Shown: positions 13,037 to 56,893, counted from the stretch's first letter. The stretch: DNA of 64,000 bases from Escherichia coli (GCF_036507355.1 NZ_AP027877.1); one strand, 5' to 3'. Numbers and translations are program-made. Notes: generated by a model not told the origin, from the letters alone.

Positions 13037-13768
13037 TCAGGCTGTTACCAAAGAAGTTGCAACCTGGCGCTCATCAGAAATAATGTGCGTTACCTCATCC
13101 AGATGCCCGATGCGGGCTTCCCCTGAACGATTAAATTTACTTTTATCAATCAATAACAACGATTGCGCGGCACGTTTTAATAGCATCGATTTGTAATCAG
13201 CGTTGATAGCATTGGAGTCCCACAGTGCGCCGCTGCTATCGATCCCTTCACAAGAAAAAATAAACAGATCGATTTCCAGCGATTTAAGTTGGGAAATCAG
13301 CGAGGGATTGACGTAACAGCCATATTTGCGCTCAAGTGTGCCGCCGGAACTGATCAGTTGAATGCGTTCGCGTTTACCGAGTTCATGGCAAATCGGATGG
13401 CTATTGGTGAAGACCTGAATGTTGATGTCAGGCAACTGGCGTGCCAGATACCAGCAGGTTGAACTGGCGTCTAAGGCTATCACCATCCCTTCTTCAATCC
13501 ATGCGAGCGCTTCGCGCGCGATATCTGCTTTATGCGCATAATGGCTTTTCAGCCGGATGTGAAAGGGATCGCCACTGTCTTGATTTTGACGGTGGATATT
13601 TTTAGCGCGCCCATGATTGCGCAGAATTTTACCCTGCGTCTGTAATTCATTGAGATCGCGACGAATGGTTTCTTTACTGACCTTTAGCTGTTCAGAGAGA
13701 GCTTCCGTGGTCAGGCTGGTATGGTTCAGCAGCAGGTCGACTATCGCTTGCTGGCGTGCCGCTTTCAT
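13037..13768 (-). CDS. fucR: DeoR-family L-fucose operon activator FucR
   Basis: 243-aa ORF from ATG (rc 13766-13768); DeoR HTH plus sugar-phosphate-binding domain. Confidence 0.9.
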   Translation of the reverse strand: MKAARQQAIVDLLLNHTSLTTEALSEQLKVSKETIRRDLNELQTQGKILRNHGRAKNIHRQNQDSGDPFHIRLKSHYAHKADIAREALAWIEEGMVIALDASSTCWYLARQLPDINIQVFTNSHPICHELGKRERIQLISSGGTLERKYGCYVNPSLISQLKSLEIDLFIFSCEGIDSSGALWDSNAINADYKSMLLKRAAQSLLLIDKSKFNRSGEARIGHLDEVTHIISDERQVATSLVTA

Positions 13769-13825
13769 ATTTTTCACCCCATCATTCGATAACCGCCCGC
13801 GTCATGCGGGCGTACCGGTATGAGA

Positions 13826-14248
13826 TTACGGTGTTACCCCTTTTTTTAAAAGAATATTCCCGTACTTCGCTCGTTCGCCTGTGATAACGATCGCAAAGGC
13901 TTTTTGCGCCCGTTCATAAAACGCAAAACGATTGATGCGGATGATGTCAGGACAGGGGGCTTGTAGTGAAAGCGCATTACGGTAACGTCGTTCTACTTCA
14001 GGATCGAGAGTGTCACCTTCTACCGCCGCCATCATCACCAGCGGTGGTGCATAACTGTCCAGTTCAAATAACGGGATAATCGCCTGGAGCAAGTCGCTCA
14101 CCAACAGGCCATCAGCGCGGATCACCTGCGGTCCCATAGAATGGGCGGGAAAGTGAGCATCGGAAAAAATAATTTCATCTCCATGTCCCATCTCTGCCAG
14201 CACTTTCAATAGTTCGGGAGAAATTAACGGCGAAATTGTTTTCAGCAT
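13826..14248 (-). CDS. fucU: L-fucose mutarotase FucU (RbsD/FucU family)
   Basis: 140-aa ORF; fuc operon synteny. Confidence 0.9.
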
Positions 14249-14249
14249 T

Positions 14250-15668
14250 TCACACTTCCTCTATAAATTCAGGTTCAGTTTGCGGGTAGAAATAACGGTA
14301 CTGATAATGAATCTGTGCACGGGCTTCTTCCGGGCTGTTAAATTCCCCTACGCCATACCAACCGAACAGCGCAGCTCCTGCGACGGTCGTTTCGGCATCG
14401 TCGAGAACTTTTACCGGAATATCAAGCATATTGGCTTTAATCTGATTCCACAATGTGTTGCGACTTCCTCCACCGACTAACAATAATTCAGAGGCCTTAA
14501 AGTGCCCGATTTTTTCCAGCATCTGTAGATTGCGCTGTAATTGCGCAGTTAACCCTTCCAGCGCCGCGCGATAGAAATGCCCCCGCGTGGTATTAAGCGT
14601 CACTCCTTGCCAGCCAGCGTTCTGACACGACAATAAATCACACTGCATTTTCACGCCATCCGCGCCAGGCGCGATCAGACGAGCCTCTTCAATCAACATT
14701 TGCCAGGGTGTTTCAGCCGTCCAGAACAGTTTTCTCACCCATTCCAGCACGCCGGATGCCAGCCATTGCATACCTGGGTTATACAACCCTGCCTGGCTAT
14801 CCAGTTCGCAGGTGGAACCGGCGTACTGACTTAACAGCGAAGTATCAACCTGGGCGCTGCGAACCATTAAAATTTCCCATGTACCGGAAGAGAGCACGGG
14901 TTCATTTTGTTCAGCACCAGCGCCAAAAAGGGCGAACTGGGTATCGTGACCTGCGGAAATCACCGGTATGCCAACGGGTAAGCCGAGCATTGCTGCGGCG
15001 CTGTTCTGTAGCGTACCAATCTGTTCACCCGCTTCCACCAGACGAGGGAAGAGTCGGCGTGGAATACCGGTGGCTTGTAAAATTTGCGGACTGAAATCGC
15101 GTTGCTGGATATCCAGCATCTGGCTGGTTCCGGCCATCGTGATATCAGTAGTGAATTCGCCGGTTAAACGGTGGTTAATCAGCGACGAAATAAAGAGCCA
15201 GGCGTGCGCGCGTTCCAGCAGTTGTGGATGATTTTCTTTCAACCACACCAACTTATATAACGTATTGAAACTAAAGGCTCCGACGCCAGAAATAGCCTGC
15301 AACCGCTGTGCGGAGATTAACCGTTCAATATTGTCCATAACCGCTGCTGTTCGCGGACATTTCCAGCTAATGATCGGATAGAGCAGATTACCTTGCTTAT
15401 CTACCAGAGCGCCATCCACACCAAAGGTGGTGACGGCGATACCGCGGATGTGGCATTCAGTCAGTTCACTATTGATTTGCCGACAGCAATCAGCAAAGCG
15501 TTGCAAAATCGCGTCTAAAGACCACTGGTGCCAGGTGTTGTTTTCCATCGCGATATCGCTGGCATTAGGCGTTGAGGCGCGGGCAACAATTTTTCCCTGC
15601 CGATTAACCGCGATGGCCCTGACATTGGTCGCGCCACAGTCGAGTACCAGGATAACTTCTTGTTTCAT
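14250..15668 (-). CDS. fucK: L-fuculokinase (FGGY family)
   Basis: 472-aa ORF from ATG (rc 15666-15668) with AGGAG RBS; an upstream in-frame ATG at 15698 is an alternative start. Confidence 0.9.
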
Positions 15669-15776
15669 AATCGCTCCTGCAATATAGCCGGATAACATTG
15701 CTTATCCGGCTAACCACTCTTGCTTGTTCAGGCCCGGTAGCCGGAGCGACCGGGCATCACATCAGGGAGTAATGTA

Positions 15777-17552
15777 TTAACGCTTGTACAACGGACCGTA
15801 GTTCTGGCAAGCGCGGTAATCCTGGCCTTCAATATCCATGCCGTGCGCAGCCCAGGCAGAAGGACGATACACTTTGGTCTCTTCAACGTTGTGCATACAT
15901 ACCGGGATACGCAGCATGGAGGCGAGAGTGATAAAGTCTGCGCCAACGTGGCCGATGGTCAGAACCCCATGGTTAGCGCCCCAGTTCTCCATTACCGAAT
16001 ACACATCCGTAAACGGCCCTTTACCGGTGAGGCGCGGTGCAAACCAGGTGGTTGGCCAGGTTGAGTTGGTGCGTTTGTTGAGGATGTCATGCACATCCTT
16101 CGGCAATTCCACGCTCCAGCCTTCCGCGATTTGCAGTACCGGTCCCAGGCCTTTGATGATGTTGACACGAGTCATGGTGAACGGGACGCCGCCTTCGGTA
16201 AGGAAGCGGGAAGAGTAACCGCCGCCACGGAAGTATTCGTGGATCGCCGGGCACCATTCGGTAGCGGCGAGGCAAGCGTCAGCCTCTTGCTGAGAGATTT
16301 CCCAGTGTGGCTTCATCGTCGGGTTACCTTCGCTGTCGCGTTGTTTACAGGAACCGTCCAGCGCAGCAGAACCTGAGTTGATCAAATGGATGATGCCGTG
16401 TTCTGCCAGTCCATCGAGTTTATGCCCCGTTACACGCTCAATTGCTTCTGGTGACCAGTAGGTACGCACATCGGCAAATACCTGAGCGGTGCCGGTGAGC
16501 TGGTGACCCATTAGCATTGCCACGCCGTTAAGACTGTCGTTTTCGGTCGCCACGACAAAGGGTTCGCGCACGCCATTCCAGTCAAATGAACTGTTAAGGA
16601 TCGCTTCGGCGGTGTCGCCATTGGGATATTGATCGGTCCAGTGGCGTTGCCCCTGGAAGCCCGCAGCGATAGCGTTGTAGCCAAGTGATTCTTCCACGCG
16701 ACCAATATCGGCCAGTTTGCTGTTGCCTTGCATCATGTCGCGGATACACATCGCCATCAGTAAACTTTCGCGCAGAACTGCGCGGTTTTGCTCGGCATTG
16801 CGTTGATACTGTTTGTTATTTTCATCTTCGCCATAGCGGAAGTTTTTATCAGCCCAGGCCAGCGCCATTTCCAGTTCGGCTTCGTCGTAAATCTTCTGAT
16901 CGATACGGCGACGAAGTTCGGTCATATCCACCGCCTGGACTTTCATTCCCAGCCAGGATTCAAAGAAGTTGTGATCAACAATAGATCCGGCGATACCCAT
17001 CGAAACGCCGCCCAGCGACAGATAGCTTTTACCTTTCATGCTGGCGACGGCCAAACCGGCGCGGGCAAAGCGCAGCAGTTTTTCTTCAACATCGGCAGGA
17101 ATCGATGTGTCATCGGCATCCTGAACGTCATGACCGTAAATGGAGAATGCCGGGATGCCTTTCTGGCTGTGAGCTGCCAGAGCCGCTGCCAGGTAAACAG
17201 CGCCGGGACGTTCAGTGCCGTTAAAGCCCCAAATGGCTTTCGGGCGGGTTGGATCCATGTCGATGGTTTCACTGCCATAGCACCAGCAAGGCGTTACCGT
17301 AATGGTGAGGCCTACATTCTGGCTGCTGAATTTTTCTTCGCAAGCAGCGGCTTCAGCCATACCCGCGATACAGGTATCGGAAATGACACACTCGACGGCA
17401 GCTCCGCAGGCATGGCGCAGTTTCTCGGTCAGCAGTGTGGCCGTGGCTTTCGCCATATTCATTGTTTGTTCTTCAAGCGACTCACGAACACCCATGCGAC
17501 GACCGTCAATAACCGGGCGGATACCAATTTTCGGTAACGTATTAATTTTCAT
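15777..17552 (-). CDS. fucI: L-fucose isomerase
   Basis: 591-aa FucI-family ORF; N-terminus [14 protein letters not shown]. Confidence 0.9.
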
Positions 17553-17634
17553 CAGGATTCCTCATCTCGCTTTATTGGCGCTCTGCTAAGGCGGAGAAAG
17601 GAAACCACCGAAGCAGTAGTATTGGTCATTATTT

Positions 17635-17650
17635 GCTAACTCGAGTTAGC
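17635..17650. promoter_or_regulatory. Perfect 16-bp palindrome GCTAACTCGAGTTAGC (candidate operator), copy 1
   Basis: Exact self-complementary 16-mer centred on CG in the fucI / ABC-transporter divergent intergenic region. Confidence 0.5.
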
Positions 17651-17694
17651 TTAGGTTCGTAGGCTTTTTATGCACAACTTTTTTGTTGTTGAAA

Positions 17695-17710
17695 TGTGAG
17701 GGGCTTCACG
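17695..17710. promoter_or_regulatory. CRP-like site TGTGA-N6-TCACG
   Basis: TGTGAggggctTCACG, 9 of 10 matches to the CRP core consensus, lying between the two palindromes. Confidence 0.4.
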
Positions 17711-17873
17711 AGAAGTGGTTAAAATACGATCTCTGTCAAATTATTATTTAGCGGGACAAAAATAAATTTTACGTATAATCATATGTTTATTAGATTTTAA
17801 TGGTTATGCATCACAGTTTTAACTCAAATGATTTGGCTAATTTGTATACCTAAAATAGCTTTAAAAGGCGATC

Positions 17874-17889
17874 GCTAACTCGAGTTAGC
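17874..17889. promoter_or_regulatory. Perfect 16-bp palindrome GCTAACTCGAGTTAGC (candidate operator), copy 2
   Basis: Identical to the copy at 17635-17650; centre-to-centre spacing 239 bp. Confidence 0.5.
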
Positions 17890-18021
17890 AAAATGCGAAG
17901 AATAGATTGATGCGATGAATATTTATTCAAAGGTTATTCGTATCACAGTGGAGATGGCTTTAGTAGCGACGTTTATGCCGTACTTCACATTTTCAGTTTC
18001 TGATTATTGAGGAAAGCTGCA

Positions 18022-19521
18022 ATGTCCGAAACATTTTTGCAAATGAAGCATATCACCAAACGCTTTCCTGGAGTGTTGGCGCTTAATGACGTGCAATTTT
18101 CCCTACGCCGGGGCGAGGTTCATGCATTATTAGGTGAAAATGGTGCAGGAAAATCTACCTTAATGAAAATTTTGTCGGGGGTTTATCAACCTGATGAAGG
18201 CGAAATAATTTTTGAAGATAAACCAGTCTCATTTTCTGATCCGTTAAGTGCGCAAAACGTAGGTATTACTATTATTCACCAGGAATTTAATTTATTTCCC
18301 GAGCTTACAGTAGAGGAAAATATTTTTATCGGCAGGGAGTTTTGTAAAAAAAATCGCTGGCGTCTGGATGAGAAACAGCAACGCCAGGCGACGATCGAAA
18401 TTTTGCAAAAATTAAATTTGGCGATCAAACCAGATACTCTGGTTGCCGACCTTACGGTAGCTCAACAGCAGATGGTTGAAATTGCCAAGGCCATTTCGGT
18501 TAACGCCAGGATTCTCATTATGGATGAACCTACTGCGGCGTTAACAGAAACTGAAATTGAAAGCTTATTTCGCGTCACCCGCTTATTGAAAGAGCAGGGG
18601 ACCGGCATTGTGTATATATCCCACCGTCTGGAAGAGTTGGCGCTAATTGCCGACCGCGCGACTGTAATGCGTGATGGTCAGTACATCAGTACGGTGGATT
18701 ATGAGTGCGTAAAAATCAGCGATCTGATTGCCATGATGGTTGGTCGCGATTTAGGGAATATCTATCCCCGCCGCGAGGCCATACAGCAGCGGATGCCGGT
18801 TCTGGAGGTCAACGGACTGACGCGCAAAGGCGTACTCAACGATATTAATTTTACGCTTTATCGTGGCGAGATCCTCGGCTTTGCCGGACTGATGGGGGCA
18901 GGTCGTACTGAACTTGCGCGTGCGATTTTTGGTGCGGACTCCATTGACAGCGGAACGCTAAAGTTAAATGGTAAGGAAACCGTTATTAAAGATATTTCGG
19001 ATGCTATTCAGCAGGGAATTAGTTACCTGACGGAAGACCGAAAAAAAGAAGGGTTGGCACTGAATTTATCTGTTGAACGAAATATTATGTTAGGAAATTA
19101 CCCTGAGTATTCCGATCGTTTTGGGAATGTCGATTCGCGTCGTTGCCAACAAACCAGTGAGGAACAGGTAAAAGCGTTAAGGATTAAAACGCCAAATCTT
19201 GAACAGGCTGCATTAAATCTAAGTGGAGGAAATCAGCAGAAAATTATAATTGCACGTTGGGTGTGTAAAGATACTGATATTTTAATCTTCGATGAACCCA
19301 CTCGCGGCATTGATGTTGGCGCCAAACTGGAAATCTATGAGTTAATGAATCGCCTGGTGGCAAAAGGGAAATCAATCATCATGATCTCCTCTGAATTGCC
19401 GGAGGTGTTAGGAATGTGCGACCGTATTTTAGTGATGCGCAGTGGTCGAATTACTGGCGAACTTAGCGCAAATGAAGCGACACAAGAAAAAATCATGCAA
19501 TACGCGACGTTAGAGGATTAA
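18022..19521 (+). CDS. Sugar ABC transporter ATP-binding protein, two fused ABC domains (CUT2 family, RbsA/XylG-like)
   Basis: 499-aa product from ATG 18022 (GAGGA RBS); Walker A GENGAGKST, second-domain signature LSGGNQQK and degenerate second P-loop GLMGAGRTE; about 42% GC. Confidence 0.85.
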   Translation: MSETFLQMKHITKRFPGVLALNDVQFSLRRGEVHALLGENGAGKSTLMKILSGVYQPDEGEIIFEDKPVSFSDPLSAQNVGITIIHQEFNLFPELTVEENIFIGREFCKKNRWRLDEKQQRQATIEILQKLNLAIKPDTLVADLTVAQQQMVEIAKAISVNARILIMDEPTAALTETEIESLFRVTRLLKEQGTGIVYISHRLEELALIADRATVMRDGQYISTVDYECVKISDLIAMMVGRDLGNIYPRREAIQQRMPVLEVNGLTRKGVLNDINFTLYRGEILGFAGLMGAGRTELARAIFGADSIDSGTLKLNGKETVIKDISDAIQQGISYLTEDRKKEGLALNLSVERNIMLGNYPEYSDRFGNVDSRRCQQTSEEQVKALRIKTPNLEQAALNLSGGNQQKIIIARWVCKDTDILIFDEPTRGIDVGAKLEIYELMNRLVAKGKSIIMISSELPEVLGMCDRILVMRSGRITGELSANEATQEKIMQYATLED

Positions 19522-19524
19522 ATT

Positions 19525-20508
19525 ATGACTATCTCTGTAACCTCTCCAGACAGCAATAATAAGAAAATAAAGATAAATAAAGAACTTTTGATGCGCCTTG
19601 CGCCTCTTTTTAGCTTAATTATATTAGCGCTGTTTTTTAGTTTCAGCTCTCCCTTTTTCTTTAATACCGAAAATATCATGACGATTGCTCTGCAAACGTC
19701 GGTTATCGGCATTATGGCCATTGGGGTAACTTTCGTCATTATTACCGCGGGCATCGATCTTTCATTGGGTTCCGTGGTGGCTTTTTCTGGTGTCGCCGTG
19801 GGGATTTGCGCCACACTGGGCCTGCCGCTGCCAGTGTGTATTATTGCCGGTGTTTTAGCCGGTGGAATGTGCGGCTATGTGAATGGTTTGTTGGTCACTA
19901 AAATGACTATTCCACCGTTTATCGCTACCTTGGGCCTGATGATGTCCGTCAGAGGTATCAATATGGTGATGACCGACGGGCGCGCCATCTATTTTGCCGA
20001 TTACCCGATGTTCAAAACGCTCGCTCAGGGACGCTTGTTTGATGTGCTACCTTATCCTGTTTTCTACCTGGTCATTGTGGCGCTTGTCGGCGCTTACATC
20101 CTGAAGAAAACGGTTATTGGTCGCTATGTCTATGCCGTAGGCAGTAATGAAGTTGCTGCTCATCTTTCTGGTATTAAAGTTCAGCGCGTGAAAATTTTCG
20201 TCTATGCCTTCTGTGGTTTATTAACCGGGATTGCGGGTGTCATTCTCGCTTCTCGTCTCAACTCCGGACAACCGACGGTAGGTGTGGGTTATGAGCTGGA
20301 AGCTATTGCTGCGGTAGTGATCGGCGGAACCAGCTTAATGGGCGGTATTGGCACTATTGGCGGCACAATCATTGGCGCTTTCATTATGAGTGTACTGAAA
20401 AATGGCCTCAATTTAATGGGGGTCTCTCAGTTCTGGCAAATGGTCGCGATGGGCGTAGTTGTGGTCGCTGCCGTTTACCTCGATACATTACGCAAAAAGA
20501 TTCGTTGA
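19525..20508 (+). CDS. Sugar ABC transporter permease (RbsC/XylH-like)
   Basis: 327-aa polytopic membrane ORF starting 4 nt after the ATPase stop with GAGGA RBS. Confidence 0.85.
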   Translation: MTISVTSPDSNNKKIKINKELLMRLAPLFSLIILALFFSFSSPFFFNTENIMTIALQTSVIGIMAIGVTFVIITAGIDLSLGSVVAFSGVAVGICATLGLPLPVCIIAGVLAGGMCGYVNGLLVTKMTIPPFIATLGLMMSVRGINMVMTDGRAIYFADYPMFKTLAQGRLFDVLPYPVFYLVIVALVGAYILKKTVIGRYVYAVGSNEVAAHLSGIKVQRVKIFVYAFCGLLTGIAGVILASRLNSGQPTVGVGYELEAIAAVVIGGTSLMGGIGTIGGTIIGAFIMSVLKNGLNLMGVSQFWQMVAMGVVVVAAVYLDTLRKKIR

Positions 20509-20581
20509 CTTAGGCTCCCTGTTTTATCGGGAAACAACTGCCCTGACGTTAAGGGTGATTCACTCAGAACGGAGTACAACA

Positions 20582-21532
20582 ATGAAAACCAGGCATTTTA
20601 TCTATGCGTTATCTCTGCTGGCTTGCGTAAGTTCCAGCGCACTGGCGAAGGATTTAAATCTTCCGGTTGTTAGTAAAGGTTTCCAACATGAATTCTGGCA
20701 AACCGTAAAAATGGGGACTGAAGCTGCGGCTAAAGAGTTGGGGGATAAAACCAGCTATGTTGGCCCGGCTGATGAAACGCAAATAGCCGAGCAAATTCAG
20801 TTAGTCGAAAATGCGATGGCGCAGAAACCGAATGGCTTGCTTCTGGCAGCCCTCGACGCGAATGCGCTCGCCCCACTGGTAGAAACGGCAAATTCACGCG
20901 GTATCAAAGTGGTGACCTTTGATTCAGGCATCAATTCAGACATTCCGGTGAGTTTTGTCGCCACCAATAACCGTAAAGCAGGTGCTCAGGCAGCTGATGC
21001 CTTAGCCGCGCAGGTAAATAATAAAGGGAAAGTAGGGATTATCGCGCACGTTGCAGGAACATCTTCCGCTATTGAACGCTCGGAAGGCTTCATGGAGCGT
21101 ATGAAAGAAAAATATCCTGACATTAAAGTTTTACCCGTTCAGTACAGCGATGGTGACCCGCAAAAAGCGATGGATAAAACTATCGATATGATTCAGGCCA
21201 ATCCCGATCTTGCTGGGATCTATGGCACCAATGAAGGTTCAACGCTCGGGGTGGCGAATGCCATTGATAGCCAGAATCTGAAAGGTAAGGTGAAGGTCAT
21301 TGGTTTTGATAGTACGGAAGCGATTATTAACTTCCTGAAGAACGGCGTCATTCAGGGCTTTGTTGTTCAGGATGCATACCAGATTGGCTATCAAGGGATC
21401 AAAACGTTGAACGCGGCCCTTTCGGGACAAGCCGTTGAAAAAGAGATCGATATTCCCGTGAAATTTGTTAATGCCGAGAATATTAACACGCCAGAAATCG
21501 ACAAACTCCTGCACCCATTCGGTAAGAAATAA
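20582..21532 (+). CDS. Periplasmic sugar-binding protein (RbsB-like)
   Basis: 316-aa product from ATG 20582 (GGAG RBS); Sec signal MKTRHFIYALSLLACVSSSALA; the six-frame ORF starting at 20459 is an over-extension. Confidence 0.85.
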   Translation: MKTRHFIYALSLLACVSSSALAKDLNLPVVSKGFQHEFWQTVKMGTEAAAKELGDKTSYVGPADETQIAEQIQLVENAMAQKPNGLLLAALDANALAPLVETANSRGIKVVTFDSGINSDIPVSFVATNNRKAGAQAADALAAQVNNKGKVGIIAHVAGTSSAIERSEGFMERMKEKYPDIKVLPVQYSDGDPQKAMDKTIDMIQANPDLAGIYGTNEGSTLGVANAIDSQNLKGKVKVIGFDSTEAIINFLKNGVIQGFVVQDAYQIGYQGIKTLNAALSGQAVEKEIDIPVKFVNAENINTPEIDKLLHPFGKK

Positions 21533-21539
21533 AAAAATT

Positions 21540-21559
21540 GGGGATGAATTTTCATCCCC
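21540..21559. other. Perfect 8-bp-stem hairpin between the binding-protein gene and the kinase gene
   Basis: GGGGATGA-attt-TCATCCCC preceded by an A7 run; no T-tract on the plus side, so it is not a canonical plus-strand terminator. Confidence 0.4.
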
Positions 21560-21585
21560 GTTATCTCCAGCGTCAGGGAGGCTTT

Positions 21586-23166
21586 ATGCACAACGGTTAT
21601 TTTCTCGGTGTCGATGTCGGATCGGCCAGTGTCAGGGCAGGCGTTTACAGTGCCAGTGGCCACAGGCTGGCATTCGCTACTGCGCCCGTCTCCCAGTTTC
21701 GCCCTGGCGGCGAGCGTGTTGAACAGTCTTCGGCGGAGATCTGGCAACAAGTTTGTAAAACGGTGAAAGAGGCGACAGCTTTGGCAGGCATCCCTGGTTC
21801 CGCAATTCGCTCGCTAGGTTTTGACGCTACTTGCTCGCTGGTTGTTCTTGATGAACAAGGCCAGGGTTTAGCTGTTTCGCCCGGTGGATCTGCGAATCAC
21901 GACATTATTATGTGGATGGATCATCGTGCAACTGTCGAGACGGCGCAGATTAACGCGACGAAGGATCCTGCATTGCGCTACGTTGGCGGCGAAGTGAGCG
22001 TCGAGATGGAGTTACCAAAGTTACGTTGGTTGAAGACGCATCTACCGCAAACCTGGCAGGCCGCTCATCGCTTTTTCGATCTGGCGGATTTTCTGGTCTG
22101 GAAAGCAACAGGGCGAGACGTCGCGGGATTATGCACGCTAACGTGTAAATGGAATTATCTGGCTCATGAGCAACGCTTTAGCCATAGCTTACTGGAATCG
22201 ATAGACCTGATCGATATGCTTGAAAGAATTCCTGCCGACATTCTTCCGCCTGGCGCTGCCGTGGGAACATTAACCGCCACAGCTGCTGAAGAGTTAGGAT
22301 TAACGACTAATGTTATCGTGGCCAGTGGCTTGATTGATGCCCATGCCGGTGGCGTGGCGCTGGCTGGCGCGCACCCATCAGGAACGCTGGCATTGATAAG
22401 CGGAACGTCGAACTGCCATATGCTGTGTAGTGAAAAAGAGATATTCACCCCTGGCGTCTGGGGGCCATACTGGTCGGCCATGTTGCCAAATTACTGGCTA
22501 ACCGAAGGCGGGCAAAGCGCCGCAGGGGCGCTGGTGGAGTGGACGCTTCAGGAGTCAGGGGCAAGCGCAAATCTTTTTCACAAGGCGCAGCAACGCGGAT
22601 GTCATCCGATTCAACTGATTAATGAATGGGTAGCCGCCCTGGAAGCTAACGAGTCAGAACCCACACGAAATTTACATGTGCTTGCCGATCATCACGGCAA
22701 CCGTTCGCCACGAGCGCGGCCCGATGCCAGAGGCAGTGTTTATGGCTTAACACTGGAGCGTGGTGAAAGTCAGCTCGCGCGACTTTATCTTGCGACTTTA
22801 CAGGCAATAGCCTTTGGCACCAGACATATTATTGAAACTCTCAGGGAAAATGGGCATACCATTACCCGATTAACATTATGTGGTGGTGCAACGCACAACC
22901 CTTTATGGCTACGCGAATATGCAGACGTGACAGGCTGCGATATCCACCTGATGCAAGAAGAAGATGCCGTTACATTGGGTGCAGCAATTAGCGGCGCTGT
23001 TGCCAGCGGAGCATGGGGGGATTTTACATCTGCGTGTAAAGCAATGGTTGAAGCCGGAGAGGTTATTCAGGTAAATCCACAACGCCGTGAATTTTTAGAG
23101 CGTAAATACCGGGTTTACCTGACGCTTTGGGAGCAACAACAGGCAGTTAACCAACTGATGCAATAA
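21586..23166 (+). CDS. FGGY-family carbohydrate kinase, pentulose (ribulokinase-like) type
   Basis: 526-aa product from ATG 21586 (AGGGAGG RBS); FGGY N- and C-terminal domains (GVDVGSASVR, IIMWMDHRA); distinct from fucK. Confidence 0.8.
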   Translation: MHNGYFLGVDVGSASVRAGVYSASGHRLAFATAPVSQFRPGGERVEQSSAEIWQQVCKTVKEATALAGIPGSAIRSLGFDATCSLVVLDEQGQGLAVSPGGSANHDIIMWMDHRATVETAQINATKDPALRYVGGEVSVEMELPKLRWLKTHLPQTWQAAHRFFDLADFLVWKATGRDVAGLCTLTCKWNYLAHEQRFSHSLLESIDLIDMLERIPADILPPGAAVGTLTATAAEELGLTTNVIVASGLIDAHAGGVALAGAHPSGTLALISGTSNCHMLCSEKEIFTPGVWGPYWSAMLPNYWLTEGGQSAAGALVEWTLQESGASANLFHKAQQRGCHPIQLINEWVAALEANESEPTRNLHVLADHHGNRSPRARPDARGSVYGLTLERGESQLARLYLATLQAIAFGTRHIIETLRENGHTITRLTLCGGATHNPLWLREYADVTGCDIHLMQEEDAVTLGAAISGAVASGAWGDFTSACKAMVEAGEVIQVNPQRREFLERKYRVYLTLWEQQQAVNQLMQ

Positions 23167-23230
23167 GACAAAAGTTGAAAATACTTTTATGATTGTGATT
23201 TGACGTCTGGATGTTAACTGGGAAATACCT

Positions 23231-24229
23231 ATGGCTAAAACAGTAGAGCAGATAGCCAGCGACCTGAATTTATCGGTTACGACCGTGCGACTGGTGCTAA
23301 ATGGAAAAGCGGAACAATATCGAATCAGCGTCAAAACCCAAACGCGTATCAATGAATATGTTGAACACTATGGTTATATCATTAATCATTCCGCTCGCAG
23401 CCTTAAACTTAACAAAACTGATACATTAGGGTTGATTGTTCCCAACATATCCAACGTCTTTTTTGCTACGCTGGCAGAAAAACTTGAACAACGCTGCCGA
23501 CGTTCCGGATATCAACTTACGATCAGTTGTACTTATGATGATGTCGACTATGAAAATAAATTGACGAAAGCATTTATCGCACGAAATGTAGATGGTCTTT
23601 TTATTGTTCCTTCGACGCTGGAGAATCAGCAGCATCATTTACGCAAAATTCGTAAACCAATGGTTTTACTCGACCGTGATTTTAAATATACCGATAATGC
23701 ATTGGTAGAGAGTAATAATATTTCTGGCGGAGAAAAGTTGACACAAAATATTCTTGAGGCCGGGCAGACTCCAGTATGGTTTTTGCTGGGGGATGCCGGT
23801 TTGCCGAGTATCAGCGATCGTCTGACAGGTTATTTGAATGCGTTGGAAAAAAAAGGGATTACCCATCGCGATTGGGTGCGAGAAGGCCCGGTAAATACTC
23901 CGGAAGGCGGCTATGTCATTATGGAAAAACTCATTGAAGAGCAGGGATGTCCGCAGGCATTTATCGCCTCGTCTTTACCTGTGCTTGAAGGCGCTGTCCG
24001 CGCGATTCGCGACCGTCTTGGCGCTGTACCGCCAGAAATCAATATTGGCACTTTCGATGAACATCCCATGCTGGGATTTCTCGCCAACAATGTCTGGTCA
24101 ATGCAGCAGGATGAAAATGCCTGGGCAGAAAAAGCGTTCGAAATGATGTTAAGCGCGATCGAAGAAAGACCAGTCAAAAAAACAGTCAAAGTAGAAATGA
24201 AATTAATTAAGCGCATAAGAAAAAAATAA
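23231..24229 (+). CDS. LacI-family transcriptional regulator
   Basis: 332-aa ORF with N-terminal LacI HTH (VEQIASDLNLSVTTVRLVLNG) and periplasmic-binding-like effector domain; about 43% GC. Confidence 0.85.
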   Translation: MAKTVEQIASDLNLSVTTVRLVLNGKAEQYRISVKTQTRINEYVEHYGYIINHSARSLKLNKTDTLGLIVPNISNVFFATLAEKLEQRCRRSGYQLTISCTYDDVDYENKLTKAFIARNVDGLFIVPSTLENQQHHLRKIRKPMVLLDRDFKYTDNALVESNNISGGEKLTQNILEAGQTPVWFLLGDAGLPSISDRLTGYLNALEKKGITHRDWVREGPVNTPEGGYVIMEKLIEEQGCPQAFIASSLPVLEGAVRAIRDRLGAVPPEINIGTFDEHPMLGFLANNVWSMQQDENAWAEKAFEMMLSAIEERPVKKTVKVEMKLIKRIRKK

Positions 24230-24362
24230 TAATCGCCAAAAGATAATCAGGCTATTGAACAATGATATTCAGTGGCCACCCCTTACTAAAAATAACCCCG
24301 TCTTCATTTGCGGTGCTGTTTTACGCAACAAGGCGAGCTGGAACTGTATCTGGAGAATAGAG

Positions 24363-25010
24363 ATGGAAAGAACACGTTTATCCCGTGAAATAATTGAAAC
24401 CTGTCTGGAAATGACGCGCCTTGGGTTAAATCAGGGGACTGCGGGGAATGTCAGCACACGTTTTGAAAACGGCATGTTGATTACTCCAAGCGGTATTCCT
24501 TATGAAAGAATGACGGAGAATATGATTGTCTATGTTGATGGCAACGGCAAATACGAAGAAGGTAAGATTCCTTCCAGCGAATGGCGTTTCCATATGGCGG
24601 CCTATCAAAGCAGACCGGATGCCAACGCGGTTGTTCACAATCATGCCGTTCATTGCACAGCAGTTTCCATTCTTAACCGACCGATCCCCGCTATTCACTA
24701 CATGATTGCGGCGGCTGGCGGTAATTCTATTCCTTGCGCGCCTTATGCGACCTTTGGAACACGCGAACTTTCTGAACATGTTGCGCTGGCTCTCAAAAAT
24801 CGTAAGGCAACTTTGTTACAACATCATGGGCTTATCGCTTGTGAGGTGAATCTGGAAAAAGCGTTATGGCTGGCGCATGAAGTTGAAGTGCTGGCGCAAC
24901 TTTACCTGACGACCCTGGCGATTACGGACCCGGTGCCAGTGCTGAGCGATGAAGAAATTGCCGTAGTGCTGGAGAAATTCAAAACCTATGGGTTACGGAT
25001 TGAAGAGTAA
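24363..25010 (+). CDS. fucA: L-fuculose-1-phosphate aldolase (class II); N-terminal third diverged from the K-12 sequence
   Basis: 215-aa product from ATG 24363 (GGAGA RBS); residues from about 70 onward match K-12 FucA as I recall it, the first ~70 differ at about 18 positions. Confidence 0.85.
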   Translation: MERTRLSREIIETCLEMTRLGLNQGTAGNVSTRFENGMLITPSGIPYERMTENMIVYVDGNGKYEEGKIPSSEWRFHMAAYQSRPDANAVVHNHAVHCTAVSILNRPIPAIHYMIAAAGGNSIPCAPYATFGTRELSEHVALALKNRKATLLQHHGLIACEVNLEKALWLAHEVEVLAQLYLTTLAITDPVPVLSDEEIAVVLEKFKTYGLRIEE

Positions 25011-25037
25011 TTTCGTAAAGCAACAAGGAGAAGGATG

Positions 25038-26186
25038 ATGGCTAACAGAATGATTCTGAACGAAACGGCATGGTTTGGTCGGGGCGCTGTTGGGGCTTTA
25101 ACCGATGAGGTGAAACGCCGTGGTTATCAGAAGGCGCTGATCGTCACCGATAAAACGCTGGTGCAATGCGGCGTGGTGGCGAAAGTGACCCATAAGATGG
25201 ATGCTGCAGGGCTGGCATGGGCGATTTACGACGGCGTAGTACCCAACCCAACAATTACTGTCGTCAAAGAAGGGCTCGGTGTATTCCAGAATAGCGGCGC
25301 GGATTACCTGATCGCTATTGGTGGTGGTTCTCCACAGGATACTTGTAAAGCGATTGGCATTATCAGCAACAACCCGGAGTTTGCCGATGTGCGTAGCCTG
25401 GAAGGACTTTCCCCGACCAATAAACCCAGTTTACCGATTCTGGCAATCCCCACCACAGCAGGCACTGCGGCAGAAGTGACCATTAACTACGTGATCACTG
25501 ACGAAGAAAAACGGCGCAAGTTTGTTTGCGTTGATCCGCATGATATCCCGCAGGTGGCGTTTATTGACGCTGACATGATGGATGGTATGCCTCCAGCGCT
25601 GAAAGCTGCGACGGGTGTCGATGCGCTCACTCATGCTATTGAGGGGTATATTACCCGTGGCGCGTGGGCGCTAACCGATGCACTGCACATTAAAGCGATT
25701 GAAATCATTGCTGGGGCGCTGCGAGGATCGGTTGCTGGTGATAAGGATGCCGGAGAAGAAATGGCGCTCGGGCAGTATGTTGCGGGTATGGGCTTCTCGA
25801 ATGTTGGGTTAGGGTTGGTGCATGGGATGGCGCATCCACTGGGCGCGTTTTACAACACTCCACACGGTGTTGCGAACGCCATCCTGTTACCGCATGTCAT
25901 GCGCTATAACGCTGACTTTACCGGTGAGAAGTACCGCGATATCGCGCGCGTTATGGGCGTGAAAGTGGAAGGTATGAGCCTGGAAGAGGCGCGTAATGCC
26001 GCTGTTGAAGCGGTGTTTGCTCTCAACCGTGATGTCGGTATTCCGCCACATTTGCGTGATGTTGGTGTACGCAAGGAAGACATTCCGGCACTGGCGCAGG
26101 CGGCACTGGATGATGTTTGTACCGGTGGCAACCCGCGTGAAGCAACGCTTGAGGATATTGTAGAGCTTTACCATACCGCCTGGTAA
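25038..26186 (+). CDS. fucO: L-1,2-propanediol oxidoreductase (iron-containing alcohol dehydrogenase)
   Basis: 382-aa Fe-ADH family ORF (an additional ATG lies at 25035). Confidence 0.9.
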   Translation: MANRMILNETAWFGRGAVGALTDEVKRRGYQKALIVTDKTLVQCGVVAKVTHKMDAAGLAWAIYDGVVPNPTITVVKEGLGVFQNSGADYLIAIGGGSPQDTCKAIGIISNNPEFADVRSLEGLSPTNKPSLPILAIPTTAGTAAEVTINYVITDEEKRRKFVCVDPHDIPQVAFIDADMMDGMPPALKAATGVDALTHAIEGYITRGAWALTDALHIKAIEIIAGALRGSVAGDKDAGEEMALGQYVAGMGFSNVGLGLVHGMAHPLGAFYNTPHGVANAILLPHVMRYNADFTGEKYRDIARVMGVKVEGMSLEEARNAAVEAVFALNRDVGIPPHLRDVGVRKEDIPALAQAALDDVCTGGNPREATLEDIVELYHTAW

Positions 26187-55414: not shown

Positions 55415-56893
55415 TTACGCATTCGACCAGCTCTGGATCGAATCCGCATTTCCCAATTCCCCATGCATCACTTCATACGATTTTTTCAGAATCACATCAG
55501 TATGTTTGGTTAGGTCTTTGAAAATGCCTTTATTCATCGCGTCGTAGCGTTTGGCATTGCTCTCAATCGGTATAAAGATATCTTTCACGCGAACCATTTT
55601 ATCGACAGCCGTTGCGTAATCCGGGTATAGCCCCAGACCTACCGCGGTATTAATCGCTGCCCCCAGACTTGCACAACCGTTAATGGCGTTACGTCGTGCC
55701 GGAAGGTTGAACACGTCGGCAAAAATCTGCATAAACAGATCGCTGTTCGAACCGCCGCCAGTAATGATCACATGCTTCGCAAAGTGATTCATTTCATTAC
55801 ACATATTGTCGTAATTGTTCTTCAGCGTCAGCGCCACGCTTTCCAGTATCGAACGATATATCCATGCGTAATCCATGCTGGAATCAAAGCCGATCATAAT
55901 CCCGCGTTTGTACGGTTCCCACGGATTGGTCAGCCAGTCCAGCACCGTCATCAGCCCATTACAGCCAGGTGGCACACTAGAGGCTTTCTTGTTGAGTAAA
56001 TCTTCCGGTGAAAGATCCTGCGCCCTGGCATCCTGAATTAACGACTCGCCCAACATGTCGCGCAGCCAGCTCACCGTCCACATGCCTTTGCGAATACCGT
56101 AACCTTCATACAGCAATGTTTGCGGAATAGAAGACATAATCGGCCAGTACGCCACCGGATCTTTCGGCAAGGCTTTGCCGTTCATCATCAATGCGATGTA
56201 AGTGCCAAGAGAAATTACCGCAGTTTCATCATCCAGTAATCCGGCCCCCAGAGCTTCTACCGGTTTATCACTGGTGGTACAAACAACCGGCAGTCCTGCC
56301 GGGAAATGTGTCGCCAGTGCGGCTTGTGGTGTGATATGTCCGAGGACGGTGCCAGGCATTTGCACATCAAACAGCATATGACGAGGGATATTAAACTTCT
56401 CCATTACCGCAGCATCTTCGCTCCATGCCCAGCTCTTATAATCCACCGGCCACTGACCAAAATAGTTGGCGATATTGTCTTTAAACTCGCCGGTTAAGCG
56501 ATGCGTCAGATAACCCGAAAAAGAGGTGACATATGCCACGTCAGGATTCGTAGGTTCGTAAGGGCGTGTAACGCGTGCATCCTGCCAGCTAATCAATGGC
56601 GCAGCTGGCGTGCCATCGGCTTTCAATAACGCACGGCAGCAACGGATGGATCCCAGACCAATACCGACAATATCTTCTTTATTCCCGGCAAACTGACTCA
56701 TCAAATCGTGACCGGCAAAACATAATGATGCCCATAAATCGTCGTCAGGATGTTCTGCAGTATCGGCATCTGGCGTGTGCATCGGCTGCAATAAACCTTT
56801 GCCTTCGCAAACCACATTACCTTCCAGATCGTACATCACCACTTTTGTGCTCTGACTTCCGCCATCAATCCCTATGATATATTTTTTCGACAT
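55415..56893 (-). CDS. ygcE: FGGY-family sugar kinase
   Basis: 492-aa FGGY-family ORF (GIDGGSQSTK). Confidence 0.85.
   Translation of the reverse strand: MSKKYIIGIDGGSQSTKVVMYDLEGNVVCEGKGLLQPMHTPDADTAEHPDDDLWASLCFAGHDLMSQFAGNKEDIVGIGLGSIRCCRALLKADGTPAAPLISWQDARVTRPYEPTNPDVAYVTSFSGYLTHRLTGEFKDNIANYFGQWPVDYKSWAWSEDAAVMEKFNIPRHMLFDVQMPGTVLGHITPQAALATHFPAGLPVVCTTSDKPVEALGAGLLDDETAVISLGTYIALMMNGKALPKDPVAYWPIMSSIPQTLLYEGYGIRKGMWTVSWLRDMLGESLIQDARAQDLSPEDLLNKKASSVPPGCNGLMTVLDWLTNPWEPYKRGIMIGFDSSMDYAWIYRSILESVALTLKNNYDNMCNEMNHFAKHVIITGGGSNSDLFMQIFADVFNLPARRNAINGCASLGAAINTAVGLGLYPDYATAVDKMVRVKDIFIPIESNAKRYDAMNKGIFKDLTKHTDVILKKSYEVMHGELGNADSIQSWSNA

Follow-up and report, generated by a model that had tools for sequence, protein, structure and literature searches.

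In Escherichia coli K-12 the genes of L-fucose degradation, fucPIKUR and fucAO, flank a divergent promoter region controlled by FucR and CRP. E. coli B carries a different arrangement, the fuc-dar cluster (Elsinghorst & Mortlock 1988, 1994; REL606 and BL21 genomes), with extra DNA that includes a D-ribulokinase gene, and this D-arabinose cluster or DarK insertion has since been described in print several times (PMC3446290, PMC6150544, PMC12307932). REL606 grows on D-arabinose and MG1655 does not (PMC3446290, Table 1); the same difference separates BL21(DE3) from K-12 (PMC6150544). A metabolic model of BL21(DE3) accordingly placed an AraB-like kinase between fucA and fucI, and added reactions for a D-ribulokinase and for D-arabinose uptake by an ATP-binding cassette (ABC) transporter (PMC6150544). 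Saif et al. described a 'Variant 2' fuc operon with an ABC transporter in place of fucP in 50 of 1058 genomes and 3 of 40 isolates (PMC10221146), and Cottam et al. identified the fuc-locus kinase with the DarK of Elsinghorst & Mortlock (PMC12307932). Here we analyse the fuc locus in a stretch of 64,000 nucleotides of E. coli DNA (GCF_036507355.1, NZ_AP027877.1), referred to below as the window. The locus is almost certainly the B-type (dar) form, in the literature since 1988-94 and again in 2012, 2018, 2023 and 2025; it is real and intact, and it is not new. Taken as a whole, we consider it likely that positions ~17538-24575 are the dar allele and that this allele provides for D-arabinose uptake by the ABC importer, isomerisation by FucI and phosphorylation by DarK under the control of a LacI-type regulator.

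Genes were mapped by an open reading frame (ORF) scan of 12-30 kb together with the RefSeq annotation of the closest genome, from which start codons were taken. Five full-length, co-oriented genes lie between fucI and fucA, encoding an ABC ATPase, a permease, a periplasmic binding protein, an FGGY-family kinase and a LacI-family regulator (Table 1). These five genes had been described in an earlier reading of the same DNA (the original prediction), and the coordinates given there stand except for the ATPase start, which was placed at 18007 on an upstream TTG; the annotated start is the ATG at 18022. The original prediction also held that no major facilitator superfamily (MFS) permease lies between fucI and fucA. 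With K-12 FucP as a tblastn query (E<=1e-5), no FucP-like sequence was found anywhere in the 64-kb window, so an intact fucP is missing from the rest of the locus as well.

The same genes are found in the same place in BL21(DE3) (NC_012971, 2764455-2778379), where the DNA is 98.6% identical over 12.8 kb and the five proteins are 98.8-99.7% identical (98.9% for the kinase). In both, extra DNA with a D-ribulokinase gene lies between fucA and fucI. Whether the segment is the dar segment of E. coli B, which had been left undecided, is thereby answered: position and gene order are the same, and the window is a natural allele diverged from B by ~1.4%. Its fucA is intact, unlike that of the laboratory B lineage, which is disrupted by IS1; the IS1 junction was present in 47 genomes, comprising REL606, BL21 and 45 other derivatives including C41/C43 and NEB strains (locus L084, NC_012971, 7631-9055). 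The map of Elsinghorst and Mortlock is said to have the order fucA-darK-fucI-fucK, which fits the window, and the extra segment of strain B was reportedly 5.2 kb long, which fits a net size difference of ~4.9 kb between the window and K-12. In their 1994 map fucP was reportedly retained, with the extra DNA lying between it and fucA; in the sequences fucP is absent. Identity to K-12 is 99-100% for fucI, fucK, fucU, fucR, fucO and most of fucA. Unlike K-12, the window lacks fucP, has the whole FucR/CRP-controlled divergent promoter region replaced, carries the ABC importer, DarK and the LacI-type regulator, and encodes FucI and FucA with chimeric N-termini.

When positions 17553-24362 were compared by megablast with complete E. 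coli genomes, the segment was found in 383 of 5426, always as one chromosomal copy and with 97.7-99.4% identity; K-12 fucP was found in 5039. Since the two counts add up to 5422 of the 5426 genomes, the two forms are almost perfectly complementary. The fuc locus of E. coli thus exists in two mutually exclusive forms, and the window carries the B-type allele. E. coli BS-04 (NZ_CP172819; locus L085, 7530-9717) has neither fucP nor the five-gene segment. Its fucI and fucA are separated by ~2.2 kb with one 'hypothetical protein', and only a short remnant, 87% identical, matches the right end of the segment; either a degraded allele or a faulty assembly could account for this.

Table 1. Features of the fuc locus, in coordinates of the window
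Feature	Position	Strand	Remarks
fucR, fucU, fucK	13037..15698	-	K-12-like (99-100%)
fucR	13037-13777	-	from ORF scan
fucI, L-fucose / D-arabinose isomerase	15777..17552	-	99% K-12-like save first five codons (MKINT; K-12, MKKIS)
Variant (B-type, dar) core	17538..24575		7038 nt, GC 45.9%; from K-12 alignments and mismatch maps
O1, operator-like perfect palindrome GCTAACTCGAGTTAGC	17635..17650		83 nt upstream of fucI start codon
Candidate CRP-like site TGTGAGGGGCTTCACG	17695..17710		between O1 and O2; conserved block in multi-genus alignment
O2, operator-like perfect palindrome	17874..17889		identical to O1; 132 nt upstream of ATPase start codon
ABC ATPase	18022..19521	+	499 aa; two fused nucleotide-binding domains (RbsA/XylG/AraG-like, CUT2 type)
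ABC permease	19525..20508	+	327 aa; RbsC-like, single
Periplasmic sugar-binding protein	20582..21532	+	316 aa; N-terminal signal peptide (MKTRHFIYALSLLACVSSSALA|KD) read from sequence
darK, pentulose kinase (D-ribulokinase)	21586..23166	+	526 aa; FGGY family
LacI-family regulator	23231..24229	+	332 aa; FruR/ScrR-like subfamily
fucA, L-fuculose-phosphate aldolase	24363..25010	+	chimera: first ~213 nt ~73%, remainder ~99% identical to K-12
fucO, lactaldehyde reductase	25035..26186	+	K-12-like

The boundaries of the segment lie inside the flanking genes. Divergence from K-12 begins at 17538, 15 nt into fucI, so that the first five codons differ, and dense divergence stops at 24575, 213 nt into fucA, with stragglers at 24599 and 24681. 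The variant core therefore takes the place of fucP and of the control region between fucP and fucA in K-12, together with the first 15 nt of fucI and the first ~213 nt of fucA. The original prediction, which bounded an island at the two start codons (17553-24362), was too narrow in this respect. Mismatch maps showed identical junctions in three allele classes: they are common to the window, TB06052, MRSN346355 and, on the left side, BL21, although these alleles differ by 1.7-2.3%. No mobility genes or flanking repeats were seen at the segment. Neither intergenic region of the window shows detectable similarity to the fucP-fucA control region of K-12; residual K-12 promoter sequence was considered and rejected, the only matches being chance 8-9-mers. 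Because the breakpoints are inside fucI and fucA, and because synteny is kept in several genera (see below), the segment is an allelic replacement and not an insertion or an island dropped at an intergenic site. Outside the dense breakpoint, at 17208-17445 within fucI, single-nucleotide differences from K-12 (e.g. 17238, 17322) are common to the window, BL21, MRSN346355 and TB06052, which suggests that these flanking differences are linked to the variant allele.

The segment had also been called lower in G+C content (GC) than its surroundings. This is true of the 469-bp region between fucI and the ATPase gene (36.2%), and of the genes for the ATPase (44.1%, where 42-43% had been estimated), permease and binding protein (46.8% each) and regulator (43.0%, as estimated), relative to 54.3% for fucI and 53.7% for fucO. 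It is not true of the kinase gene, the compositional outlier of the segment at 52.8% against 43-47%. The kinase is also the least conserved protein between genera (in Citrobacter it is 80% identical, its neighbours 91-95%), and the two observations hint at a mosaic history or faster evolution. The low GC of most of the segment, and the fact that RbsA, RbsC and AlsB/RbsB are the best NCBIfam models for the transport proteins, might be taken to indicate a foreign genomic island, serving an unrelated sugar of the ribose or allose type, that was acquired recently and landed in the fuc locus by chance. This explanation is already contradicted by the breakpoints, which fall inside homologous coding sequence and are the same in alleles that differ by 1.7-2.3%, and by the fucI/fucA synteny kept in seven genera. 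Mobility genes and repeats are lacking, the Rbs and Als models all score below cut-off, and the segment has no PfkB ribokinase. We regard a chance foreign acquisition as highly improbable.

The allelic replacement has counterparts elsewhere. One genome per species was scanned for the arrangement, and the loci found were mapped by tblastn. Divergent fucI followed by the genes for ATPase, permease, binding protein, kinase, LacI-type regulator and then fucA was found in Escherichia whittamii, eight Citrobacter species, Lelliottia, Huaxiibacter, Enterobacter hormaechei subsp. hoffmannii, Atlantibacter, a strain labelled C. freundii (M-21) and Affinibrenneria, the last with the same order except that the regulator gene is missing. 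As the gene order from fucI to fucA recurs across these genera, the segment is an ancient alternative architecture of the fuc locus. Homologous exchange, with crossovers located in fucI and fucA, brought it into E. coli or retained it there, and it is maintained as a polymorphism. E. whittamii was considered as a recent donor and rejected: its segment is no more than 84-96% identical to that of the window, and the E. coli alleles differ among themselves by up to 2.3% yet share their junctions. In E. whittamii rlmM directly adjoins fucU. The fucR gene is absent from the ABC/LacI-type locus in five lineages, E. whittamii (L003), Huaxiibacter (L013), 'C. freundii M-21' (L015), Atlantibacter (L016) and Affinibrenneria (L018). 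FucR is therefore not required for this architecture.

Control by a different regulator is suggested by the region between fucI and the ATPase gene. The divergent promoter region is bracketed by two copies of a perfect 16-bp palindrome, GCTAACTCGAGTTAGC, at a distance of 239 bp (O1 and O2). These are the only exact copies in 64 kb, with no further site at <=3 mismatches and 0.13 expected. The pair is kept with a spacing of 239-240 bp in six genera (E. whittamii, the Citrobacter loci, Lelliottia, Huaxiibacter, Enterobacter and Affinibrenneria); the 'C. freundii M-21' and Atlantibacter loci have one weaker copy only. An operator lies directly upstream of fucI in seven genera. The sequence between O1 and O2 is ~70% identical across genera in the multi-genus alignment, and a conserved TAAAAT is found just upstream of O2, at 17851-17856. 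The established CRP consensus, TGTGA-N6-TCACA, is the basis on which TGTGAGGGGCTTCACG was called a candidate CRP-like site. An Rfam scan of 13-27 kb gave no match.

The regulator has the N-terminal helix-turn-helix and the periplasmic-binding-protein-like effector domain of the LacI/GalR family. Its closest subfamily is FruR/ScrR, with a score below cut-off, and it also has full-length matches to the Cra, RbsR and PurR models. It is presumed to be the repressor that acts at O1 and O2. That it would bind the candidate operator GCTAACTCGAGTTAGC is strongly, if indirectly, indicated by the co-conservation of the palindrome and the DNA-binding domain. Its gene is separated from fucA by 133 nt, and no terminator is predicted in this gap. 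The apparent inducers in strain B were reportedly, in the 1988 work of Elsinghorst and Mortlock, the free sugars and not fuculose-1-phosphate, and constitutive mutants are said there to have expressed the fucose enzymes and D-ribulokinase together. The dispensability of FucR in the ABC/LacI-type locus fits these reported induction data.

The kinase scored above the curated cut-off of TIGR01315, the model for FGGY pentulose kinases (532.4 bits against 408.7), and below the cut-offs of the L-ribulokinase, xylulokinase and fuculokinase models. Its best solved relative is 3GG4/3L0Q. From this family assignment DarK would make D-ribulose-5-phosphate and so bypass the aldolase; in the classical biochemistry the product of DarK is reportedly also D-ribulose-5-phosphate. 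The original prediction of a transport-plus-phosphorylation module for D-arabinose or fucose is thus supported by the identity with the B dar segment and by the kinase family, but its proposal that the module feeds FucA and FucO is not: with the predicted product, FucI alone would be shared by the two routes. Another FGGY-type kinase ORF at 55607-56893 (-) is 22% identical to FucK (tblastn) and is unrelated to the fuc-locus segment. The gene order ATPase-permease-binding protein-kinase-LacI-type repressor and the CUT2 architecture are those of rbsDACBKR, and the gene map bears out the earlier remark that an FGGY kinase takes the place of PfkB in an rbs-like order. Unlike rbsDACBKR, the locus has no RbsD, and the Rbs equivalog models score below cut-off.

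The transporter has the parts of a CUT2 importer, namely an ATPase with two fused nucleotide-binding domains, an RbsC/AraH-type permease and an AlsB/RbsB-type periplasmic binding protein with a signal peptide. The ATPase aligns over its full length with the RbsA, XylG, GguA and AraG models, all under their equivalog cut-offs, and the best model for the permease is RbsC (302 bits against a cut-off of 398). For the binding protein, a single-sequence AlphaFold model with a pLDDT (predicted local distance difference test score) of 43 was discarded, and a model remade with a 100-sequence alignment had a pLDDT of 94.7. Its best structural match was 4RXT (Arad_9553, Agrobacterium radiobacter), with a template modelling (TM) score of 0.95, 36% identity and a sequence E-value of 6e-55. 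The next were 5DKV (Avis_5339, 30% identity) and 4WUT (Avi_5133, 36%), the three spanning TM scores of 0.92-0.95. These Enzyme Function Initiative (EFI) solute-binding proteins of Agrobacterium are the closest solved structures, although they come from a different phylum-level lineage and genomic context. 4RXT was reportedly solved with D-arabinose bound, and the ligands of 4WUT and 5DKV are presumably D-fucose and D-tagatose, respectively.

An ABC sugar importer paired with an FGGY D-ribulokinase is also found in the Rbl system of Citrobacter rodentium, which is specific for D-ribulose (PMC12307932), and its kinase belongs to the same pentulose kinase family as that of the fuc locus. Rbl and Aau, the latter from enterohaemorrhagic E. 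coli (EHEC), feed pentoses into the pentose phosphate pathway, as the fuc-dar locus would. The main alternative to D-arabinose uptake is that the importer is a D-ribulose transporter like Rbl or Aau, delivering the direct substrate of the kinase, in which case FucI and D-arabinose would be irrelevant. The binding protein, however, matches the EHEC D-ribulose-binding protein AauA (9I1M) at only E 4e-18, against 6e-55 for 4RXT, and the ORF scan revealed no KpsF-like isomerase gene in the segment. The genomic context also differs from that of Rbl/Aau, and Cottam et al. separate DarK from Rbl by both clade and context (PMC12307932). A cognate LacI-type regulator is present in the fuc-dar locus, whereas Rbl has none and Aau uses AraC. 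Synteny with fucI is kept, with one operator directly upstream of fucI in the seven genera, and a B strain grows on D-arabinose (PMC3446290). We therefore consider a dedicated D-ribulose transporter unlikely, and D-arabinose remains our preferred cargo.

Further contexts of the kinase and regulator are offered by related loci. The GCTAACTCGAGTTAGC palindrome, with <=2 mismatches, is found 15-70 bp upstream of kinase homologues (56-62% identity) in ~35 alpha-, beta- and gamma-proteobacterial loci. The LacI homologues of these loci fall to 44% overall identity, with an almost invariant DNA-binding domain. In the distant loci (L020-L082; e.g. L020, 9970-19759, and L048, 9931-14519) the kinase gene is always followed by one for a highly conserved protein of ~550 aa that has a weak L-fucose isomerase C-terminal domain, and often then by genes for a DapA/NanA-like lyase, a BNR_2 sialidase-like protein and a tripartite ATP-independent periplasmic (TRAP) transporter. 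One may speculate that D-arabinose is released there from a sugar acid such as 3-deoxy-D-manno-octulosonic acid (Kdo); a literature search found no description of a catabolic locus leading from Kdo to D-arabinose. In Lelliottia (L012, 10949-13793) and Huaxiibacter (L013, near 16206) a third copy of GCTAACTCGAGTTAGC lies ~96 bp upstream of a DUF2961/GH172 gene; next comes a gene for an MFS_2 glycoside transporter, and this operon immediately adjoins fucA. Characterised GH172 enzymes are alpha-D-arabinofuranosidases and alpha-D-fructofuranosidases (PMC10115798, PMC10509167, PMC8605356). The GH172 and distant-locus contexts tie the cassette to D-arabinose and D-ribulose rather than to fucose, and suggest FucI as the isomerase of the enterobacterial version.

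These contexts also bear on the simpler idea that the importer is merely an L-fucose transporter replacing FucP, that D-arabinose enters by another route, and that DarK is an unrelated passenger. The locus without fucP does retain fucIKU(R)A(O) in all genera, and clinical isolates that lack fucP and have the ABC permease still ferment L-fucose (PMC10221146). A K-12 delta-fucP mutant also grows on fucose, however, and other entry routes for fucose must therefore exist. The operator-kinase-regulator cassette occurs in non-fuc contexts across Proteobacteria, the same operator precedes a gene of the alpha-D-arabinofuranosidase family GH172 in Lelliottia and Huaxiibacter, and the BL21 metabolic model already needed an ABC uptake reaction for D-arabinose (PMC6150544). 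An importer for L-fucose alone thus seems rather improbable, and we retain D-arabinose as a substrate.

In the mechanism that we propose, the CUT2-type importer, with its binding protein, one permease and fused ATPase, would take up D-arabinose and probably L-fucose too; the pyranose ring of L-fucose has the same configuration as that of D-arabinose. FucI, divergently transcribed, would isomerise D-arabinose to D-ribulose, and DarK would phosphorylate this to D-ribulose-5-phosphate, which could enter the pentose phosphate pathway with no need of FucK or FucA. L-fucose would still be degraded via FucI, FucK, FucA and FucO. Until a sugar effector binds, the LacI-family protein may repress both divergent units through the two palindromes, possibly by looping, with the CRP-like site between them, in a locus from which the FucR/CRP-controlled promoters of K-12 are absent.

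Several points weigh against this mechanism. None of the three transport proteins reaches any NCBIfam equivalog cut-off, and sequence does not assign their substrate. D-arabinose as the ligand of 4RXT is a presumption. The 5-phosphate rather than the 1-phosphate as product of DarK follows from family assignment and from older biochemistry. A scan with consensus promoters and terminators did no better than on shuffled sequences, so that the promoters are not fixed and the positions of the operators relative to transcription starts are uncertain. No experiments on the transporter or regulator were found in the searchable literature. Finally, import of L-fucose could be questioned because REL606 fails to grow on this sugar (PMC3446290). 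The weak growth of B on L-fucose has been ascribed to the missing fucP (PMC3446290, PMC10221146), and these papers did not consider the IS1 in fucA. Because IS1 disrupts fucA in the laboratory B lineage, the poor growth of B on L-fucose provides no evidence on the cargo of the ABC transporter.

A wider history of the locus can be put forward more tentatively, as a possibility that we hold somewhat less likely to be right in full than wrong. The LacI-type regulator, the GCTAACTCGAGTTAGC operator and the pentulose kinase would form an old pan-proteobacterial cassette for D-arabinose assimilation that was fused to the fuc genes in Enterobacteriaceae. There FucI may have taken over from a dedicated FucI-like isomerase, and the ABC importer may have been added. 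Control may have moved from FucR to the LacI-type repressor via two phased operators, which would leave FucR an orphan in B-type E. coli. In nature D-arabinose would come from D-arabinofuranosides, as the GH172 gene under the same operator in Lelliottia and Huaxiibacter suggests, and elsewhere from an 8- or 9-carbon sugar acid such as Kdo, cut by the NanA-like lyase encoded in the same loci.

These findings do not overturn the current understanding of the locus; the details added here are where the breakpoints lie within fucI and fucA, the synteny across genera, the conservation of the operator pair and the wider kinase-regulator cassette. The locus explains the classical strain difference in which E. 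coli B uses D-arabinose and K-12 does not, and ~7% of E. coli carry the B-type form. It is needed in metabolic models of B and BL21 production strains, and the interpretation of fucose-sensing studies in gut E. coli is affected, as B-type strains have neither FucP nor the FucR-dependent promoters. Tests of the transporter and the regulator can start directly from the operator pair and the breakpoints. The fuc locus is also a clean case of a stable two-allele polymorphism held at one chromosomal site by homologous recombination.

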